Both the position numbers and the translations under genes were made by a program. Below the pieces are notes generated by a model that saw only the letters and a program-made list of their open reading frames with translations, did no database searches and had not been told where the DNA came from. From the sequence record OZ035743.1: a DNA stretch of 64,000 nt; one strand, given 5' to 3'. Of this stretch, positions 4,873-45,298 are shown one piece after another (position 1 is the stretch's first letter; each line of letters opens with the position of its first letter). Source of the DNA: Phapecoctavirus DIJ07P1.

Positions 4873-5265
4873 TTACATTAATTTTGCACAGAAAGAGCGG
4901 AGTCTTTCCATATCATCTTGCTCTAACAGGTATTTACCTTTACCTATTCCAACTCCAATTTCACCATTAGGAAAATGAACTATTTGCACTGGGAAACCTC
5001 CGAGTTTAATTGTGGCAGCTTTGCCTTCTTCGTCTATAACGTTTCGGATTGTATCTTGCAGTGAAATGAATTCTTTGTTTGTAACAGTGGTTTCAATTAT
5101 TTCAGATGTTTCGACACGAGCAGTTAGCTTCTTGTTTCCACCTTGAATAACCAAAATTTGAAAATAAAAAGAGTTGTCAAGACCTACAACATTTTTCTCA
5201 ACTAGTGTCAAACTGGTGTAGTTTCCATAAACAGTTTCAACAGCTATCTTAGAACGTTCAGTCAT
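4873..5265 (-). CDS. Hypothetical protein
   Basis: 130-aa ORF in compact minus-strand operon; no motif recognised. Confidence 0.55.
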   Translation of the reverse strand: MTERSKIAVETVYGNYTSLTLVEKNVVGLDNSFYFQILVIQGGNKKLTARVETSEIIETTVTNKEFISLQDTIRNVIDEEGKAATIKLGGFPVQIVHFPNGEIGVGIGKGKYLLEQDDMERLRSFCAKLM

Positions 5266-27725: not shown

Positions 27726-28176
27726 TTGCCGTTTTGGTCCATAATCTTTGATTATCTGACCCTCTGAAAGGTTTTGTAGTTGGATTGTTTATTTCGTACT
27801 TTCCGTCTACAATAATGTCAATAAGATTTTTAATATACAAAGGCACTTCCTCAAAAGTATATCCTGTATACACCATTATATCTTTGCTTGACCCATAAAC
27901 GTCTCTAACCTTTTCTATAAGGCTTTTAACATTGTGAATATTCTGCGGATCTAATGGTTCTCCTCCTAAAATTGTTAAACCTTTTACAAATGGTCTTGAC
28001 AAATCTTTTAAAACTTGCTCTACATTTTCGTCAGTAAACGGTTTCCCATAAGAATAAGACCAGGCTTTTTGGTTAAAACAGCCACGACAACCGTGGCTAC
28101 AACCACTAACCCAGAGGGAGCACCTAACTCCCTCACCATTAATAAGATCTACAGGTTCATATCCTGCAAAATTCAA
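27706..28176 (-). CDS. nrdG: Anaerobic ribonucleotide reductase activating protein (radical SAM)
   Basis: 156 aa; CSLWVSGCSHGCRGCFN contains CxxxCxxC; directly downstream of nrdD with 4-nt overlap. Confidence 0.85.
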   Translation of the reverse strand: MNFAGYEPVDLINGEGVRCSLWVSGCSHGCRGCFNQKAWSYSYGKPFTDENVEQVLKDLSRPFVKGLTILGGEPLDPQNIHNVKSLIEKVRDVYGSSKDIMVYTGYTFEEVPLYIKNLIDIIVDGKYEINNPTTKPFRGSDNQRLWTKTASGWQSD

Positions 28177-29987
28177 AGATGTTTCTCCCTTTGCAAAACT
28201 TCCTGCATTTTACCTTTGTTATAAGGCCGTGAATTAGGGGCAGAAAGATACCCTGATACACGCCTAACTACAGAAATAGTTTCTTCTTCATGGTTGCCAC
28301 AATCAGGGCACTCAAACCCTTTAGCCGTTGCCTTAAATTCTCCATGAAAACCACACTTAAAGCATTGATCCACGGGCTGATTAATACCAAAATAGTGAAT
28401 ATGTTCATAAGCGTAGTCTACTAAAGTCTCCAAAGCTTCTAAGTTATTCTTTAAGTTTGGTGTTTCGACATAACTTATGTTACCACCATTGCTAATCTGT
28501 GCAAAACCTGCTTCATAATCCCATTTTTCAAAAGGATTTGTTACCAACCATACAGGTTGGTGAAAAGAGTTGGTAAGATAGTCTCTTTCTACCAAACCTG
28601 GGTATTTTTCATTTAAAGCTGTTGCAAACTTATAGCACAAGGATTCTGCTGGAGTTCCATAGAGACTAAACGCCAACTTAGATCGTTCTTTAAACACAGC
28701 ACACACATCTTTCATATGTTGCAGAACGCTTTTACCAAGTTCCTTTTTATCTTTTTCTTCTGGATAAAGGATTTCCAAAGCTTCGGCAAGACCTACATAA
28801 CCAATACTAATAGAAGCATAACCACCTTCAAACAAAACACCAATTTCATCATTGGCATTTAAACGCGCTAAAGCCCCTTCCATGAAAAGAATAGGGTTTT
28901 CAGATGCTTTGGTATGTTTAATACGGTTTACACGTAACATGTGAGCATCGTAGGCTATCTCCATATGTTTATTAAGGAGGTCGGTGAAAGATTCTCCTTT
29001 ACTTCTCGCTTCCGCAGCAATCAGAGGCAAGTTGATAGAAACTACTCCAAGGTTGAATCGTCCATCATATTTTTCTCCTTGTTCGGTGGCATAGTACGAC
29101 AAAAAGGAACGACAACCCATACTCGTAACAGTACCATCTGCTGATCCCGTAACTTCTTTGTTCAAAGGAACAGAAATAAAATCTGGATAAATGCGATCAG
29201 CACAACATGCCAAAGCTTGTTGCTTAAGGTCATAGTTAGGATCACTAGGTTTCATGTTCACACCTTCTTGTAAAAAGAAAATAACTTTAGGAAATACAGG
29301 TGTTACATGATCTTTGCCTAGACCATTACTATGCACTTTAAGATAGTTAGCTGTGATCATTCTGCCAAAAACAGAGGTATCCAGGCCCATACTGATTGTA
29401 ATAAAAGGAGATTGTCCATTTACACTCATTAAAGTATTAACCTGATACAAGAGAGTTTGCATAGCATCATATACATCTTGTTCGGTCATTTCTAGGGCTT
29501 CTTTCCTTGCATAACAACCGTAGCGACGTTTAGTTATCTCCATGTTTTTAAGGAAACTAGCTTCAACATAAGGACTAAGACCTTTATCAATGTGCGCACA
29601 CGTCTGACCTCCATACTGACTGGAGGCAACAGCTTGGATGATTTGAGTTAGCACTGTAGTAGCTACTCCAATAGATTTTGGTTTTTCTATCTGTGCAGCA
29701 CCGATCTTAAAACCATTCTCTAACATATCTTGATAATTAACAAGACAACAGTTTGTAAGAGGAGAGAGCAGATAATCCAAGTCGTGAATATGTCCAAAAC
29801 CTTCTGTATGCCATTCTGACAAGTTTTTTGGCAGTATCTGTGTCATTGCCATATGTTTGCTTAAAATCCCCGCCAAGAGATCCCTATGCGTGTTAACGAG
29901 GTGGGAAGGTTTGTTTGCATTCTCTCTAGTGTATGTTTCTGAAGTGCGATCTAAAAAAGAAAAAACATCTTGGTACAAATCTTTCAT
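28173..29987 (-). CDS. nrdD: Anaerobic ribonucleoside-triphosphate reductase
   Basis: 604 aa; C-terminal CFKCGFHGEF...CPDCGN zinc site followed by glycyl-radical motif RRVSGYL. Confidence 0.9.
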   Translation of the reverse strand: MKDLYQDVFSFLDRTSETYTRENANKPSHLVNTHRDLLAGILSKHMAMTQILPKNLSEWHTEGFGHIHDLDYLLSPLTNCCLVNYQDMLENGFKIGAAQIEKPKSIGVATTVLTQIIQAVASSQYGGQTCAHIDKGLSPYVEASFLKNMEITKRRYGCYARKEALEMTEQDVYDAMQTLLYQVNTLMSVNGQSPFITISMGLDTSVFGRMITANYLKVHSNGLGKDHVTPVFPKVIFFLQEGVNMKPSDPNYDLKQQALACCADRIYPDFISVPLNKEVTGSADGTVTSMGCRSFLSYYATEQGEKYDGRFNLGVVSINLPLIAAEARSKGESFTDLLNKHMEIAYDAHMLRVNRIKHTKASENPILFMEGALARLNANDEIGVLFEGGYASISIGYVGLAEALEILYPEEKDKKELGKSVLQHMKDVCAVFKERSKLAFSLYGTPAESLCYKFATALNEKYPGLVERDYLTNSFHQPVWLVTNPFEKWDYEAGFAQISNGGNISYVETPNLKNNLEALETLVDYAYEHIHYFGINQPVDQCFKCGFHGEFKATAKGFECPDCGNHEEETISVVRRVSGYLSAPNSRPYNKGKMQEVLQREKHL

Positions 29988-32271: not shown

Positions 32272-33864
32272 TTAACGATCCTCTCTGATTTGATTAATCT
32301 TACGAGCAAGGGCAGCTATAAGCTTATCTTCTTCGGATACAGGAGCCGTGCTCTTACCTAAACGATGCATGTCTAGAATCTCTTGAACAGTCCGGTTCCA
32401 TTGTAGACATTTAATACAACGTGTATGTGCAACATACAGAAGATTTCGTTCTGATTCTTCAAGACCTACCCACTCACCCTTCTTATCATAATTAGAAGGA
32501 AAGTCATTTGCAACAATAACCTGATCCCATTCCAAACCTTTTGATTTGTGGGCTGTAGTTAAAGTAACTTTAGCCGTTGGAGAGTTACGGTGCATACGTA
32601 AAGTGTATGCAATATTATTAGCTTTACCAGAAACAACAATGTTTAAAAGTCGTTTTGCATCAGGATCTGATTCTGCACACTCTACAAATTCTTCCCAAGA
32701 AGTGTAAGGTAGAACTGTCTCATGCTTAACTTTGTCCAAATCACCTCTACGTAAAGCATTAACACTATCAACCATAGAAATGAAATCTTTGGTATCTACG
32801 TTAATAATAATCTCTTCTCCGTTAGCGATTCGGTCCATAGCTTCGAGCAACAAAGTCAAATTCTTACGGAAAATAATGGTGTAAGGTTTACTATAATCTA
32901 CCACATCAGAATGAAAACTTCCAGTGACAGTATCATAACCTTTGCCTACCAGCGGATGCTTCAGAGGTGAACGATCAGAAAGGATCGCATTAGCAATGTC
33001 CGCAACTTTAGGACCAAAGCGAAAACAAGCTGTCAGAGGCAACTCAACCCCATATGTAGCCGTTTGCTTCATCATGTTCTGGCTTCCACGGAACTGATAA
33101 ATACTCTGAAATTCATCACCCACAACAACAATACGTTTAGCCGATTTAGCATTGCGAAGGATAGACAGGAATGCAGGGTTAACATCCTGGAATTCATCTC
33201 CAAAAATAATATCGTATCCTAAGTCTTCTTTGCTCAATTCAAAGAGTTTCACATAGGTGTCATGAGTCATAATGGTTTCTGATTTAGGATCGATACGCTC
33301 ACGCCAAAGTTGCTTCGCATATTTAACAACTTCGTTAATAAGTTTTTGTTCGTTGATGTTTTTACGTTTTAGGTCTGACATGTGCACTTTAGGAAAATGT
33401 TTATGTCCGATATGTTCATCGTCAGAAAACTCATATTTAGCTAAAGTTTGTTTTACCATTAACCCGATCATTGCACGAGTCAGTAGCACTTTACCATTCT
33501 TATCGATCAAGTTCTGAATCTTGAATTTCTTGGCAATCTCACTACCAGTGCCAGCTACGTTAACATATTGACCTTCTGGACGAGATAATTTGTGTCGAAG
33601 GTTTTGTGGAAGACGCTGGTAACAGATAGAATGTAGCGTTCGGCACATAACATTGGGCGGCATTTTACGTCGAGCTTCCTCTGCCATACTTTTGTTAAAT
33701 GCTAAGTATAGGATACTATCATTTGTACCATTAGCCAACATATACAGCGTTGACGTTTTACCTGATCCAGATTTAGCTTGAATTGTAACGAAACGATTTT
33801 CTTGATACCCACTTTCAATAGCGTATTGTTCGTCGGTAGGTGTAAAACTCAATTGTGTAGACAC
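32272..33864 (-). CDS. UvrD/Rep-like superfamily 1 DNA helicase
   Basis: 530 aa; Walker A AKSGSGKTS, motif II GDEFQD, motif III-like QSIYQFRGS, motif VI-like TTAHKSKGLEWDQV. Confidence 0.8.
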   Translation of the reverse strand: MSTQLSFTPTDEQYAIESGYQENRFVTIQAKSGSGKTSTLYMLANGTNDSILYLAFNKSMAEEARRKMPPNVMCRTLHSICYQRLPQNLRHKLSRPEGQYVNVAGTGSEIAKKFKIQNLIDKNGKVLLTRAMIGLMVKQTLAKYEFSDDEHIGHKHFPKVHMSDLKRKNINEQKLINEVVKYAKQLWRERIDPKSETIMTHDTYVKLFELSKEDLGYDIIFGDEFQDVNPAFLSILRNAKSAKRIVVVGDEFQSIYQFRGSQNMMKQTATYGVELPLTACFRFGPKVADIANAILSDRSPLKHPLVGKGYDTVTGSFHSDVVDYSKPYTIIFRKNLTLLLEAMDRIANGEEIIINVDTKDFISMVDSVNALRRGDLDKVKHETVLPYTSWEEFVECAESDPDAKRLLNIVVSGKANNIAYTLRMHRNSPTAKVTLTTAHKSKGLEWDQVIVANDFPSNYDKKGEWVGLEESERNLLYVAHTRCIKCLQWNRTVQEILDMHRLGKSTAPVSEEDKLIAALARKINQIREDR

Positions 33865-37807: not shown

Positions 37808-38061
37808 TTTACTTCCCCTTTGTAATCGGACACTATACCAGGTCTTACTTTTGCCTTAAGATGTTTCAACTCTACCATAGGAGTTGCCACTTGTATAGGG
37901 CTAACTTCAACCTTGTAGATAGTATATTCATAAGTCGCATATTTACCGATGGAATGCAAATACTTAATTGCGTGTTCAGGGGAATCTGCTTCAACATACC
38001 CTAAATCTTTCGTAGTACGACCTTCGGTATCGCCTTCAGTGGTTACGTGATAAAGTGTCAT
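37804..38061 (-). CDS. Hypothetical protein
   Basis: 85-aa ORF. Confidence 0.55.
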   Translation of the reverse strand: MTLYHVTTEGDTEGRTTKDLGYVEADSPEHAIKYLHSIGKYATYEYTIYKVEVSPIQVATPMVELKHLKAKVRPGIVSDYKGEVK

Positions 38062-38381
38062 AAAACCTCCTTCTGGTTGGCTGCTTCAATCATAACGTTA
38101 AGAGTCTCCATACCGCTTTCAACTGCTTGAGCAATCTCTTGGAACACTGTTTTCTTAAAGATGTATAAAGATCCTGCCTGTAAGCGTTGCACACAGCATA
38201 AGAGGGTTTGGTGATCCATAACAAAGTCTCCATAAGCACAATCAATTTTCCCTGTGATTGGGTTGTCTCGTGAGCGAGGATCGTATTCTAATGTGATATG
38301 CGTTACACCAGGTAAAGTAACAAACTGACAACGGATGTTGACACGTGGTGCAATTGACACGCTAAACAAACTGTTTGACAT
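38058..38381 (-). CDS. Hypothetical protein
   Basis: 107-aa ORF. Confidence 0.55.
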   Translation of the reverse strand: MSNSLFSVSIAPRVNIRCQFVTLPGVTHITLEYDPRSRDNPITGKIDCAYGDFVMDHQTLLCCVQRLQAGSLYIFKKTVFQEIAQAVESGMETLNVMIEAANQKEVL

Positions 38382-38528
38382 TTAAACCTCCTCGTAGTAA
38401 GGCAAAGCTTTGATCAGCTGTTCTGAAGTGCCATTCTCTGTCCATGTAACCCCGTTGTCAAGAGAAACATACCCTTTCTTATCGATAAATTTACGGAGAC
38501 AACCAGTGAACTTGTTTTTGTAGATCAT
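38382..38528 (-). CDS. Hypothetical small protein (below ORF-track cutoff)
   Basis: about 48-aa ORF read manually (MIYKNKFTGCLRKF...); ATG overlaps upstream stop. Confidence 0.35.
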   Translation of the reverse strand: MIYKNKFTGCLRKFIDKKGYVSLDNGVTWTENGTSEQLIKALPYYEEV

Positions 38529-38959
38529 TTCTTCTTTCCTTTCTTTAATTTGTTGTGACCTTTACCCTTATAAAGCTTGTGATTACGAGCAGATGGGTTA
38601 TTTTGGTTCTCCAGTCGGCTAACAGGTGTATTCCAAAGATTTCCTGCTACAAAAGATGCTGCCACAAGTTCTTCCAGGTATACAAAATCCAAAGCAGGTA
38701 TCTTTGTTTCCCTCATCTTGCGTTCTACATTAGACAACACGCCTTCTTCCTTACTGTCTTCTTTTTCAATTACAGACCAACCCTCTTCCTGCCAAGCTTC
38801 CCCTCTGAACCAAGTTTCCATGTTATAACCTTGTTCGTCGAGAATAACACCATCTCGCATCTCAAACCATTCACCACCGCAAAAATAACTGTGCTCAACA
38901 CGTCTACCTTCCTTCATTGCTTCTTTAGCTTCGGTCCAAGTCAGTTTGATGTTTTGCAT
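38525..38959 (-). CDS. Hypothetical protein, possibly DUF2829-like N-terminus
   Basis: 144 aa; N-terminal W.EA.EAMKEGRRV...W pattern; basic Lys-rich C-terminus; first gene after minus-strand promoter. Confidence 0.5.
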   Translation of the reverse strand: MQNIKLTWTEAKEAMKEGRRVEHSYFCGGEWFEMRDGVILDEQGYNMETWFRGEAWQEEGWSVIEKEDSKEEGVLSNVERKMRETKIPALDFVYLEELVAASFVAGNLWNTPVSRLENQNNPSARNHKLYKGKGHNKLKKGKKK

Positions 38960-39073
38960 TTGTTTTCTCCTCTTGTTTTGTATGAGTTGATCTTAACAGG
39001 ACTAAAAAGCATGTCAATACTTGATCTGAAATTATTTTCAGGTATCATATATGAACATTAACAAGAGAGGTAG
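38960..39073. promoter_or_regulatory. Divergent promoter region at strand switch
   Basis: Minus: TTGACA-16-TAAGAT; plus: TTGATC / TATCAT-like elements before 39074 ATG. Confidence 0.5.
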
Positions 39074-39367
39074 ATGATGAACATTACTTTAGCAACTAAG
39101 AATATTTCTGAGACAATTAACGGTTTTGGTGTCATTGTAGCCTTACACGGTAACAACGAGAAATGGTTGGCTTCTTTTGAAGAGGATCGTCAGCACAACA
39201 TTATTTTAGATGCTCCTATAAAAGTTATGCATATCGTTGGTGAAAGCAAAGTGCTCACTTCCTCCCGTTCAAAAGAACAAATTACAAATGAATTAGTAAA
39301 ACTGCTTGACAATGTTCTTAACATGTTTGATAATGCACCCATCGATACAAAACGTGTCTTAATGTGA
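39074..39367 (+). CDS. Hypothetical protein
   Basis: 97-aa ORF, RBS GAGAGG. Confidence 0.55.
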   Translation: MMNITLATKNISETINGFGVIVALHGNNEKWLASFEEDRQHNIILDAPIKVMHIVGESKVLTSSRSKEQITNELVKLLDNVLNMFDNAPIDTKRVLM

Positions 39368-39379
39368 GAGGAGAACCAA

Positions 39380-39667
39380 ATGTATTATTCACAAAATGAA
39401 GTAGCAAACATTAAACTGGCAGTTGGCGATCTTATTGTGTCACCTAACTACCATTGGGATAACACAGACTTGGTTGAAGTAGTAACTCATGTTGGGTTTG
39501 AGGGTGTTGTGCTCTACACCCTGGGTGGAGGTGTTGTTGGGGAAATGGAACGTTATACAACGACCAAGAAACTGGTAAGTTCTTATCGTATGTTCTTGCA
39601 TCAAGGCTCAGAAGAGTATGCAACCTTCTTGTTGAAATTGGACGCAGATCGGGAGAAGGCACGATGA
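39380..39667 (+). CDS. Hypothetical protein
   Basis: 95-aa ORF, RBS GAGGAG. Confidence 0.55.
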   Translation: MYYSQNEVANIKLAVGDLIVSPNYHWDNTDLVEVVTHVGFEGVVLYTLGGGVVGEMERYTTTKKLVSSYRMFLHQGSEEYATFLLKLDADREKAR

Positions 39668-41162: not shown

Positions 41163-41519
41163 ATGAAAAAACTAATCTTAGCCACATTGCTGGCTACCGT
41201 AAGCTTCACCACTTACGCTCAAAAATTTGTAGCAGTTAAAACAGATATTGGTAAAGATGTTGTGATCACAGGCAACAAGTTTTACTATACACCTGGGAAT
41301 GGTGTTCTAGAAGAGTGTAAAGATGTTGAGGCATATACGGGAAAAGAAGATAACACGGAACGTCCTTTTTATTCGATTATAGCTACTTGCAAAAATGAAA
41401 TAGTAGCTATTAAACAATACAAAGATGCCCCTGGAGGAGAATACTTATTAGTCAAGAATATTAAGAGTGAAAAAACTGCAAAGTTTACAGTAATTATTTT
41501 AAAAGGAGAAACGTTCTAA
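41163..41519 (+). CDS. Secreted protein with signal peptide
   Basis: MKKLILATLLATVSFTTYA signal; GGAGGG RBS. Confidence 0.6.
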   Translation: MKKLILATLLATVSFTTYAQKFVAVKTDIGKDVVITGNKFYYTPGNGVLEECKDVEAYTGKEDNTERPFYSIIATCKNEIVAIKQYKDAPGGEYLLVKNIKSEKTAKFTVIILKGETF

Positions 41520-42658
41520 TGAAATACACTATTTTTGGAGATGTAGCTGTTGTAAATAAGGAATATGGCGTTGAAGCTAATAAACTTCCTGCTGGAGTTT
41601 GGGTTGTCAACTGCGATCCGCACGGTAACTACTCTTTAGTGCGTGGTGAAAGTTTCTCTCTTCCGAACACTCTTTATGGGGAAACTAAAGATCGCGCCGC
41701 ACATGTTATTAAAACATTTGCTCGTCGTAGTAAAGAAGGTAAAAATACTGGGGTGTTACTGACAGGGACAAAAGGCAGTGGTAAGACGATGTTAGCTAAA
41801 CTAATTAGCATGTCTCTAATGTCCACAGAAGGTTTAGGTATTCCAACCATTTTGGTTACACAGCCTTACACAGATGCTGGCTTCTTAGAATTTATGAGTA
41901 AAATTACAGATCGTGCTGTTGTTTTATTTGACGAATTTGATAAAGTGTACGCTAAGAAAGAAGATCAGGAAGCACTGTTGACCTTGTTGGATGGAACAGG
42001 AAGTGGGAATAAACTTTACATCCTCACTAAAAATAGTGGTTATATCTCGGAATATTTTGTAAACCGTCCTAGTCGTATCTACTACAGTTTCAATTACGAT
42101 AAACTGTCTAGTGAAACTATGTTAGATTACTTGGATAAGAACTTGGTAAATAAAAAGCACGTAGATAACTTCCAACGTTTATGGGATGTTAGCACAGAGT
42201 TGTCTTTCGATGTTATTCAAGGCATTGTAGAAGAATTGAATTTCTATCCAAAAATGACTTTTAAAGAATGTCTTGAAATGATGGGTATTTCTTTAGGGAA
42301 CGATGCTAAATGGAATGTGGCTTCTATCGTAGCTAATGGCAAAACCTTGAAGGTGAATTGGATCAATAACTGGCACGACTTCACCCCTACTAAGTTTTTG
42401 TCGGGTGCTTGTTCCCTGAACATCTATCTACAAAGTTTGAAAGATGATGAAGTGGAAGCAATGGAAACCAACAGTTATGTTATCCTGGATGAAGATGGTG
42501 ATCCACATATTGATCTATGTGCAACGGCTGATGGTCTAACTTGTGATCTGATTGAAGGTGGTAAGATTCTGGTTATGAGCACTACACCAGGAAACACTTT
42601 GCGAGTGGTGCTGGAGCCTGTAACACAACGTTCCACTACACTTGGTAGCGTGTTCTAA
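41519..42658 (+). CDS. AAA+ ATPase
   Basis: 379 aa; Walker A GTKGSGKT, Walker B VVLFDEFD. Confidence 0.75.
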   Translation: MKYTIFGDVAVVNKEYGVEANKLPAGVWVVNCDPHGNYSLVRGESFSLPNTLYGETKDRAAHVIKTFARRSKEGKNTGVLLTGTKGSGKTMLAKLISMSLMSTEGLGIPTILVTQPYTDAGFLEFMSKITDRAVVLFDEFDKVYAKKEDQEALLTLLDGTGSGNKLYILTKNSGYISEYFVNRPSRIYYSFNYDKLSSETMLDYLDKNLVNKKHVDNFQRLWDVSTELSFDVIQGIVEELNFYPKMTFKECLEMMGISLGNDAKWNVASIVANGKTLKVNWINNWHDFTPTKFLSGACSLNIYLQSLKDDEVEAMETNSYVILDEDGDPHIDLCATADGLTCDLIEGGKILVMSTTPGNTLRVVLEPVTQRSTTLGSVF

Positions 42659-42746: not shown

Positions 42747-44207
42747 GTGCCAAAAATAGTCACTTGGGAACAATATAAAACAGATATAAAACAAGCTTAT
42801 CAAGGTAAGTCTTGGACTGTTGTAGATTATATTGAGCCGTGGAACGGCAATAAAACTAAACTTAGATGCATCTGTGCTCTGCATGGAGAATGGAAAACAA
42901 CAAGCATAAATACCGCTAAACTAGGGAGGGGTTGTCCAGAATGCGGTAGGGAGATTATAAGTAAAGCAGTATCTATAAACAAATCAAAAACCTGGGAGCA
43001 ATATAAAGAAGAAGTGCAAACCACTTACAATCAGGCAGGTAAGTTTTGGACTGTTACAGGATGGCACGGAGAATGGAAAGGATGGAATACTAAACTGGTT
43101 TGTTGTTGTGCTTTACATGGGGAGTGGAGGTCTACTTCTATATCTTCTGCGAAAAACGGGAGTGGATGCAGGAAGTGTATGGGAGAAGCAAACAGAGAAA
43201 GAACATCGATTGCATGGGAGAAACATAAAGAAGAAGTAGAAGAAGCTTATAAAGAAAAACCCTGGATTGTTAGAGGCTATGTGGAACCGTGGAACGGTTC
43301 CCGCACTAAGTTGATTTGTGAGTGTAAGGTTCATGGTCAATGGTGCACTACCACTGTAAACAGTGCTAAACAAGGGACTGGATGCTACAGTTGTCAAAGA
43401 GAAATGACGAAACAAAGGAATACAATGGAGGATAAACAACATGTTGAAGATTTTATAAAAGCTTGTCCTGATAATGTAGAGCGTAAATATTATCGTAGCG
43501 ATAGAGTAGATAGATTAGGTCGTCAGGTTTACTGGATTGTAGAATGTCCTATATGTGCAGAGGATGATTATTGTAAAGAAGGCTTATGCGATAATAAATT
43601 TGAGATGAAGATGAGTCATTTGAAAAGGGGTGGCCTTCCTTGCCGTTGTTCTAAATATTATCATTACACTCCTGAACAATGGGCCTACCGTATGACCAAA
43701 GCTTGCCAGGAACGAGGGGATCAATTTATAGGATTCATTGATAAGGTAAGCAATAACAGCAAGTTTAAATATCTATGTAGGGAGCATGGAGAGCAAACGA
43801 TCACACCTACCGATTATCTCAATGGGAAAGGTTGTCCAGGCTGTAAGAACAGAAATATGCAAGAATTTTACATCAATATTATTCTTGATGAGTACGGAGA
43901 AGACACGGGAGCTTACAAGTTGGGGATTGCAAAGGACAGTGATATCAGGATCAAAGGGCAGAATGCAAACAACAATTACTCTATGCGCCGTATAGCATTG
44001 TTCGATCTGCCGTCCTACCAAGCTTGCAGGGCGTTAGAGAGTAAGCTAAAGTCTAAGACTGATCAGATTCTACCGTCTATTGGCTGTGTAGAACGCTTGC
44101 ACATGAAAGATGGTCATAGTGAAACCTTCCTGCGCGAGGATTTGGCTATCGTCTTAAGTGCTATCAACCAAGCAGGTGGAATAATGAGAGAGGAGGAAAC
44201 ATGTTAG
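42747..44207 (+). CDS. Zinc-ribbon tandem-repeat protein with C-terminal GIY-YIG-like region
   Basis: 486 aa; four tandem ~75-aa repeats (W..YK...W.V..Y.EPWNG..TKL.C.C..HGEW.TTS.N.AK.G.GC..C); C-terminal EFYINIIL...GAYKLGIA. Confidence 0.7.
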   Translation: MPKIVTWEQYKTDIKQAYQGKSWTVVDYIEPWNGNKTKLRCICALHGEWKTTSINTAKLGRGCPECGREIISKAVSINKSKTWEQYKEEVQTTYNQAGKFWTVTGWHGEWKGWNTKLVCCCALHGEWRSTSISSAKNGSGCRKCMGEANRERTSIAWEKHKEEVEEAYKEKPWIVRGYVEPWNGSRTKLICECKVHGQWCTTTVNSAKQGTGCYSCQREMTKQRNTMEDKQHVEDFIKACPDNVERKYYRSDRVDRLGRQVYWIVECPICAEDDYCKEGLCDNKFEMKMSHLKRGGLPCRCSKYYHYTPEQWAYRMTKACQERGDQFIGFIDKVSNNSKFKYLCREHGEQTITPTDYLNGKGCPGCKNRNMQEFYINIILDEYGEDTGAYKLGIAKDSDIRIKGQNANNNYSMRRIALFDLPSYQACRALESKLKSKTDQILPSIGCVERLHMKDGHSETFLREDLAIVLSAINQAGGIMREEETC

Positions 44208-44579: not shown

Positions 44580-44759
44580 ATGGCACGTTTAGCAGATCAT
44601 GAAATCTTTAAACCTATTCTGAACCACTATGATGAACTTAAAGCAGTGTTGGATTGTTATAGAGAGGATGAAGAACGTTTGGAAGTCAATCTTAAGATAG
44701 TTCTGATGAAAGCTTTTCAAGACGGGCAAGCTAAAGTTTTAGAAGGCATGAAAAAATGA
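44580..44759 (+). CDS. Hypothetical small protein
   Basis: Start set at Met after GGAGAAA RBS. Confidence 0.45.
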   Translation: MARLADHEIFKPILNHYDELKAVLDCYREDEERLEVNLKIVLMKAFQDGQAKVLEGMKK

Positions 44760-45298
44760 GAATAACTGATGAATATGTATTCTTCTTTTCACATAAAGAT
44801 GTGTTTAGTAATTGGTATATTGCACCCTTTACAGAAACTGAACCAGGTTACAATGAGACTTTCTGTTGTGTTGAGCAATATATGATGTGGCGTAAGGCTT
44901 TGCTGTTCAAGGATCATGCGATTGCAGCAGCTATCCTTGATCACTCAACTATACGTGACAACGAGAGGAAACAAGCATACTACAAACGTATGGGTCGAGC
45001 GGTATCTGGTTTTAATAATGATATGTGGGAAGAGAACCGTGAGCGTATTGTTATGCGAGGCTTATGCTTGAAATATGTACAGAATCCAGATTTGTATGCA
45101 GACTTACACCTTTACCAATACAAAACGTTTGTTGAAGCAAGTCCTTACGATAAGGTTTACGGTATTGGAATGGGAATGTATGAACCAGGGGTGCTAAACC
45201 CTGCTACCTGGAAAGGGCAGAATCTTTTAGGCAAATATCATAATAAACTGATCGAAATACTTTTCCCAGACAAAATACCGCAAAGACGATATTTGTGA
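44756..45298 (+). CDS. NADAR-domain (YbiA-like, DUF1768) protein
   Basis: 180 aa; VFFFSHKDVFSNWY...CCVEQYMMWRKALLF parallels E. coli YbiA INFYS...FSNF...SEHYFQAQKF. Confidence 0.65.
   Translation: MRITDEYVFFFSHKDVFSNWYIAPFTETEPGYNETFCCVEQYMMWRKALLFKDHAIAAAILDHSTIRDNERKQAYYKRMGRAVSGFNNDMWEENRERIVMRGLCLKYVQNPDLYADLHLYQYKTFVEASPYDKVYGIGMGMYEPGVLNPATWKGQNLLGKYHNKLIEILFPDKIPQRRYL

Follow-up and report, generated by a model that had tools for sequence, protein, structure and literature searches.

Tad2-family sponges are a main route by which phages disarm signaling immunity (i.e., Thoeris, CBASS, and Pycsar), and their specificities keep widening. The characterized DUF2829 proteins act by stoichiometric binding and not by catalysis (bioRxiv 10.1101/2023.05.01.538930; bioRxiv 10.1101/2025.08.24.671296; PMC13133391), with Tad2 tetramers serving as sponges for 3'cADPR, His-ADPR, cUMP, N7-cADPR, or cyclic dinucleotides (bioRxiv 10.1101/2023.05.01.538930; bioRxiv 10.1101/2025.08.24.671296). 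In SPO1 Tad2 (gp34.65; PF11195; 89 residues), the gcADPR site lies at the homotetramer interface, with V-shaped dimers packed via helix alpha2 and strand beta2, and the ligand is contacted by W25, N26, I63, T65, D67, H71, W73, S76, T78, and D79. AcrIIA7 (HgmTad2; PDB 8KBI) carries a helical head domain at its N terminus as well as an extended domain, and its tetramer binds tracrRNA in the basic groove of the core (K58, K66, K71, K93, and R101; PMC13133391).

Here we describe a 144-aa protein encoded in a 64,000-nucleotide stretch of Phapecoctavirus DIJ07P1 (sequence record OZ035743.1; the whole stretch is referred to as the window). Phapecoctavirus comprises phAPEC8-like Escherichia coli myoviruses (~150 kb; subfamily Stephanstirmvirinae), and the window is 99.9% identical to Phapecoctavirus genomes around the gene. 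The protein is the ortholog of phAPEC8_00241 ("hypothetical protein"). An identical protein is present in 70 public contigs and is called "hypothetical" in all checked records but one. The original prediction, made from the window sequence alone, described the gene as the first behind an early promoter and its product as possibly DUF2829-like. The ORF and the quoted N terminus (residues 6 to 23 read LTWTEAKEAMKEGRRVEH) matched exactly, and a sigma-70-type promoter-like site was located in the 114-bp divergent intergenic region, about 30 nt 5' of the ATG (Table 1). The -35/-10 pair and its spacing to the ATG (29 to 30 nt) were kept in a relative with ~76% protein identity (locus L002) and in a distant orthologous locus (L004), both with diverged flanking sequence.

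The gene is the first of a dense leftward operon of small genes that ends at a UvrD-type helicase, and distant orthologs in related ~150-kb phages likewise open a divergent operon or lie close to its start. The whole gene is under purifying selection (dN/dS of 0.22 versus L002). Its stop codon overlaps the start codon of a 48-aa ORF for which no Pfam match was obtained. The AAATGA junction between the two, AAGAAGAAATGA, was conserved in four of four diverged lineages, and the last tail codons double as a purine-rich ribosome-binding site for the downstream ORF. Via the ATGA overlap, the 48-aa ORF is translationally coupled to the 144-aa gene.

The genes flanking the divergent promoter on both sides belong to phage-only, recently defined Pfam families of unknown function. 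The rightward early operon contains ORFs at 41519-42658, 42747-44207, and 44756-45298 (all on the plus strand), and its products include an AAA ATPase whose nSTAND-like matches are weak, a protein of 486 aa containing three CapR-homology domains (E = 1e-28), and another with a NADAR domain (E = 3e-35). At a related phage locus (L005), genes for an NMN transporter and an AAA_28 (NadR-like) protein are found close by. This gene content suggests NAD- or ADP-ribose-related functions in the early region. Further along the leftward block (28173-29987 and 32272-33864, both on the minus strand) are genes for NrdD (anaerobic ribonucleotide reductase; E = 2e-164) and the UvrD-type helicase.

Table 1. 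Features of the 144-aa gene, its product, and the adjacent genes in the window
Feature	Position	Strand	Basis or remark
ORF, ATG start, TGA stop, 144 aa plus stop	38525..38959	minus	ORF listing; exactly as originally predicted
N-domain, minimal divergent DUF2829 (Tad2/AcrIIA7 fold), residues 1-66	38762..38959	minus	Alignment, profile comparison, model
Acidic linker, residues 67-88	38696..38761	minus	Alignment A1; length and sequence vary among orthologs; pLDDT <50
Conserved helix motif D-[FY]-x-x-L-E-x-x-h-h-A, then W-x-T-P-V-S-R, residues 90-115	38615..38692	minus	Alignment
Lysine-rich tail RNHKLYKGKGHNKLKKGKKK, residues 125-144	38528..38587	minus	Invariant in 19/19 close homologs
Shine-Dalgarno sequence GAGGAG, 7 nt 5' of ATG	38967..38972	minus	Sequence; identical in orthologous loci
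Sigma-70-type promoter-like site	39017..38990	minus	-35 TTGACA 39017..39012; 16-nt spacer; TG-extended -10 TAAGAT 38995..38990
48-aa ORF, ATG overlapping the stop of the 144-aa gene (ATGA)	38382..38528	minus	ORF listing; junction comparison
Flanking gene, one of DUF7247 (E = 1e-46), DUF7325 (E = 5e-24), and Phage_tudor (E = 3e-26)	38058-38381	minus	Pfam; families listed in the same order as the genes
Flanking gene, same Pfam list	39074-39367	plus	Pfam
Flanking gene, same Pfam list	39380-39667	plus	Pfam

The product is an early-placed protein with two functional parts, in which a DUF2829-type domain is joined by an acidic linker and a predicted helix to a lysine tail. We collected 21 close homologs by a word-indexed search and aligned them (alignment A1). 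An AlphaFold2 (AF2) model of the full-length protein was confident in residues 1 to 66 only, where the order of elements is alpha1 (8-16), beta (20-23), beta (32-35), beta (38-41), alpha (55-58), and beta (61-64). The C-terminal half had a pLDDT of <50, and no fold was assignable. The helix at residues 90 to 115 is a low-confidence prediction; its motif recurs in distant orthologs, and L-E-x-L-V-A-A-S...W-x-T-P-V-S-R is conserved at about these positions in the close homologs of A1. Compared with L002, the N-domain had a dN/dS of 0.23 and the middle region (residues 67 to 121) one of 0.33.

The original prediction named an HMM search with DUF2829 as the check that could refute it, and this search gave no match: hmmscan of the protein against Pfam returned no family even at an E value of ≤10 (the gathering score of PF11195 was not reached), and NCBIfam returned none. 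Neither the protein alone nor the close-family profile retrieved anything beyond noise from the PDB sequences, and a Tad2 HMM built here scored the close homologs at only ~6 bits. Weak matches to PF11195 (E = 3e-4 to 1e-2) were obtained for 21 of 146 remote family members. Against 177,635 PDB sequences, the broad family profile gave only two matches with an E value of ≤10, namely SptTad2 and ModTad2; in both, the matched parts were the N-terminal helix together with the terminal W-x-I-V strand.

We then aligned a 184-sequence N-domain profile with a 121-sequence Tad2 profile by hhalign. The latter consisted of SPO1 Tad2 (sequence from the supplement of bioRxiv 10.1101/2023.05.01.538930) and 120 homologs among the matches listed, all PF11195. 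The local alignment had a probability of 92.7% (P = 4e-7), and the global alignment had a probability of 83.8% across all 66 columns; controls with one reversed and eight column-shuffled Tad2 profiles yielded probabilities of ≤1.2% (P ≥ 0.04). With the close family alone, the probability was 73%. In a Foldseek search of the full-length AF2 model against the PDB, the top 13 matches were all Tad2 structures, and BFVD matches included phage proteins of 60 to 63 aa named by UniProt "DUF2829 domain-containing" or "Thoeris anti-defense 2-like." The model itself has an N-terminal helix on an antiparallel beta-sheet and a final [D/G]-W-x-I-V strand. Given that the profile-profile, PDB-profile, Foldseek, BFVD, and weak PF11195 matches agree, we consider with high confidence that residues 1 to 66 form a minimal, divergent DUF2829 domain. 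Thus, the DUF2829-like assignment stood as to fold and homology for these residues and failed as to formal Pfam membership.

The domain defines a large family. The protein matched phrog_22208 (E = 1.2e-99; residues 1 to 144 on profile positions 4 to 147) and phrog_3474 (E = 2.1e-30; residues 4 to 65 on positions 2 to 63 of 64) in PHROGs, both of unknown function. An exhaustive profile search of 1.84 billion representatives produced 193 matches (E ≤ 1e-3), nearly all to profile positions 5 to 65, so that the family comprises 193 clusters at 50% identity. Among the 147 representatives that are not close homologs, 75 are stand-alone domains (~60 to 70 aa), 58 carry a C-terminal extension, 12 carry an N-terminal extension, and 2 carry both. 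The N-domain was found by tblastn in 482 phage records, mostly from phages with enterobacterial hosts (Klebsiella, Escherichia, and Salmonella), including T4-like (~166 kb), Felixounavirus-like (~90 kb), and T5-like Epseptimavirus phages. The mini-DUF2829 proteins of PHROG 3474 and 22208, most of which are stand-alone proteins of 60 to 70 aa, thus belong to the same family as the 144-aa protein, and among them the helix and the KGKGHNKL tail were added in the Stephanstirmvirinae-like lineage only.

A 65-aa stand-alone homolog of the N-domain is encoded in a T5-like Epseptimavirus (MF431741.1, 7432-7629; positions 5001-5198 of locus L006), where it is located in the left terminal repeat (i.e., the pre-early, first-step-transfer region) near A1 and A2. 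Of the 58 members with a C-terminal extension, about 12 have a tail that is basic or contains a Cys knuckle (SEC-C), and Pfam detected the SEC-C motif in four family members. A C-terminal SEC-C zinc knuckle or other Cys-rich tail was seen in P0119, P0106, P0095, and P0117, and also in P0091 and P0127, in the form C-x-C-G-S-G-x-K-[FY]-K-x-C-C or C-N-C-x-C-H...G-K-V-M-H-I-V-x-C-C. The mini-DUF2829 domain has therefore been paired repeatedly with short C-terminal knuckle or basic tails. One match, P0052 (2,489 aa, eukaryote-like; E = 3e-8), was rejected as a false positive produced by the summing of nine weak partial matches. These correspond to nine repeats between residues 1333 and 2305, of the form LREGDRVEARYKGGSKWYKGKISRVNADGSYNID, with a Tudor- or Agenet-like look; as this case illustrates, the first half of the N-domain resembles small beta-barrel repeats.

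Comparison with SPO1 Tad2 revealed both shared and rebuilt parts. The two share the N-terminal helix motif x-F/W-x-E-A-x-x-A-h-K-x-G-K/R-x-V, the antiparallel beta core with a terminal [D/G]-W-x-I-V strand, two pocket aromatics, small protein size, and an early place in the phage. In contrast to SPO1 Tad2, the domain described here has ~62 residues and lacks the beta2-beta3 loop/alpha2 dimer element: the loop with alpha2 (~25 residues) is deleted in the global hhalign alignment, and in the model beta2 and beta3 are not connected by any helix. The protein has no Pfam match, and its domain is followed by a 78-residue C-terminal extension that ends in the lysine tail.

The ligand site differs as well. 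In the 121-sequence Tad2 sample, R22, W25, N26, T65, W73, S76, Q77, T78, D79, D84, and W85 are 98 to 100% conserved. The hhalign mapping placed W25, N26, W73, S76, T78, D79, and W85 of SPO1 Tad2 opposite Y25, F26, W50, R52, E54, A55, and W61, respectively, and T65 has no equivalent. Of the Tad2 ligand contacts tested, only two aromatic positions are therefore kept (W25 as Y25 and W73 as W50), and in place of the Tad2 motifs R-x-G-W-N-G and W-x-A-S-Q-T-D-x-L-A-x-D-W, the protein has H-x-Y-F-x-x-x-E, E-x-G-Y, and W-F-R...G-W. These losses are equally seen relative to ModTad2 (PDB 9EIB), a sponge for His-ADPR and cUMP. The replacing residues are themselves conserved within the subfamily (H23, 84%; Y25, 54%; F26, 88%; E30, 91%; E42, 88%; G44, 87%; Y45, 72%; W50, 74%; R52, 57%; W61, 94%). 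In the model, they appear to be located in the beta1-beta2 and beta3-to-alpha loops, the counterparts of the Tad2 pocket loops, and thus probably form a binding site with different chemistry. With a net charge of about -6, the N-domain is acidic overall, and so are the polar residues that it conserves best (E30 and E42); this is unusual for phosphate binding. AcrIIA7 differs in this regard; the core is acidic in our protein, and the basic charge is located in the disordered C-terminal tail. Because E. coli is not known to carry type II CRISPR, our protein would need a target other than that of AcrIIA7.

The lysine-rich tail is the most constrained part of the protein. It is strictly invariant in the close homologs of A1 as N-x-K-L-x-K-G-K-G-H-N-K-L-K-K-G-K-K-K. 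Distant orthologs (P0022, P0023, P0032, and P0038), with N-domains that are 33 to 46% identical and middle regions that are unrelated, end in K-[LI]-x-K-G-[KR]-G-H-N-[KR]-L-Q-K-R-(G)-K-K-K and keep the helix motif D-[FY]-x-x-L-E. Compared with L002, residues 122 to 144 had a dN of 0 and a dS of 0.86, and the tail codons vary synonymously between lineages; these results indicate selection on the tail peptide. Only the last few tail codons overlap the ribosome-binding site and start of the downstream ORF.

Searches for the tail motif outside this group yielded little. A degenerate DNA scan of IMG/VR returned one ortholog and a single chance match, which was internal; among 5.8 billion proteins, a profile search returned just fragments of the same orthologous group; and 596 Gb of bacterial genomes contained four chance matches and one contaminating contig. 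A full-text literature search for the tail peptide found nothing, and no sign of host-protein mimicry by the tail was found in these phage, protein, bacterial-genome, and literature searches. The KGKGHNKL tail thus appears to be specific to this lineage and not a portable module. The contig in question (JAPMLR010000052.1; 541 bp; locus L011), from a Lysobacteraceae assembly, carries the 3' end of the same gene with a translation, as far as shown, identical to the window protein; it is probably phage contamination of that assembly.

Early placement, rebuilt yet conserved loops, a constrained polybasic tail, and the lack of a catalytic motif together lead us to infer a binder of a nucleotide-containing target. 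The protein would be an early antidefense or host-takeover binder that acts stoichiometrically on a target containing nucleotides, either a signal or RNA. The loop residues H23, Y25, F26, and E30, together with E42, G44, Y45, W50, and R52, would recognize a ligand other than gcADPR, and the lysine tail would strengthen binding to a polyanion, with RNA or DNA as the most plausible candidate. The early context of the gene (i.e., the conserved sigma-70 promoter, the start of a divergent operon in orthologs, and the pre-early homolog in a T5-like phage) supports this reading. Two observations count against it: with alpha2 absent, a Tad2-type tetramer with its interface pocket is only putative, and the core is acidic, with E30 and E42 as the best-conserved polar residues. 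In addition, 75 of the 147 representatives are tail-less, so that tail-dependent polyanion binding cannot be the ancestral function. The combination of early stoichiometric binder, rebuilt loops, and polyanion-binding tail is the best explanation as a whole, with an even chance of proving correct. That the protein is a stoichiometric binder specifically of a nucleotide-containing immune component is a possibility to which we give somewhat less than an even chance. Literature on T5 pre-early genes, Phapecoctavirus antidefense, and "Tad2-like" proteins contained nothing on the 144-aa protein.

The main rival is a nucleic acid-binding host-takeover protein with no link to immune signaling, in which the tail would bind DNA or RNA and the N-domain would merely oligomerize or dock (e.g., a modulator of the nucleoid, transcripts, or ribosomes). 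The strongly basic tail with its dN of 0, the SEC-C or Arg-rich tails on other family members, the structured RNA held in the tetramer groove of AcrIIA7 (the closest structural neighbor), and the place of the gene at the head of a long early operon of small genes ending in a UvrD-type helicase are all in line with such a role. However, the N-domain has strongly conserved polar and aromatic loop residues of its own, which a mere scaffold would not need, half of the family is stand-alone and without a tail, and the tail motif corresponds to no known DNA- or RNA-binding family and was absent outside the lineage in the searches run. We regard a pure takeover role as unlikely, although it deserves more weight than any other alternative to the nucleotide-target binder.

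A further alternative is that the minimal DUF2829 domain of enterobacterial phages is not a degenerate Tad2 but a distinct functional class with a new mechanism. The aromatic/acidic loop set (H23, Y25, F26, E30, E42, Y45, W50, and W61) would then define the class, its ligand would be cationic, or else an immune signal or RNA for which no sponge is yet known, and the tail would deliver the domain to nucleic acid in a new form of antidefense or host takeover. We consider this improbable.

The original prediction also implied a role in Thoeris antidefense, that is, a canonical Tad2 whose homotetramers would sponge 1''-3' gcADPR and block type I Thoeris. The agreement of the fold with Tad2 structures, the retained aromatic pocket positions (Y25 and W50), and an early gene placement like that of sponge genes fit this role, but the specifics do not: none of N26, S76, Q77, T78, and D79 is retained, alpha2, on which the V-shaped dimer depends, is deleted, there is no PF11195 match, and no known Tad2 protein has a role for an invariant lysine tail. 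Likewise, the H-x-Y-F motif of the subfamily was not found in any sequence in the searched supplement text of the 84-sponge survey. Because the signal-binding residues are absent and the lysine-rich tail is invariant, the protein is better described as an uncharacterized variant than as a standard Thoeris inhibitor, and a canonical gcADPR sponge acting on type I Thoeris is very unlikely.

Still less credible is the view that the resemblance is convergent, with the N-domain being a small, generic beta-barrel of the SH3 or Tudor type that has no homology to DUF2829; we consider this view highly improbable. The annotation of the gene as a tRNA methyltransferase in GenBank LR597654 (phAPEC8_ev052; LR597654.1, 137035-137469) can practically be dismissed, since it consists of a single annotation line against "hypothetical" in all other checked records, no SAM-dependent methyltransferase domain was found in Pfam, NCBIfam, PHROGs, or PDB sequence or fold searches, and a protein of only 144 aa, of which 66 aa form a beta-rich domain and the tail is disordered, has no room for a SAM-binding fold. 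The label looks like an annotation error that could spread.

The protein represents an uncharacterized mini-DUF2829 subfamily, to which a helix and an invariant lysine tail are joined in this lineage. Specialists would find little surprise in the fold assignment by itself; what makes the protein worth pursuing is its rebuilt pocket, its very strongly selected tail, and the broad distribution of the family among enterobacterial phages. The present analysis links a large set of unannotated phage proteins (the 193 clusters and 482 phage records) to the Tad2 fold, in a set in which the known ligand site has been rebuilt, and many of the Klebsiella, Escherichia, and Salmonella phages concerned are candidates for therapy. 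If these proteins bind a different signal or RNA, the list of phage counterdefenses would become longer, and this would help to explain the host range of phAPEC8-like, T4-like, and T5-like phages.
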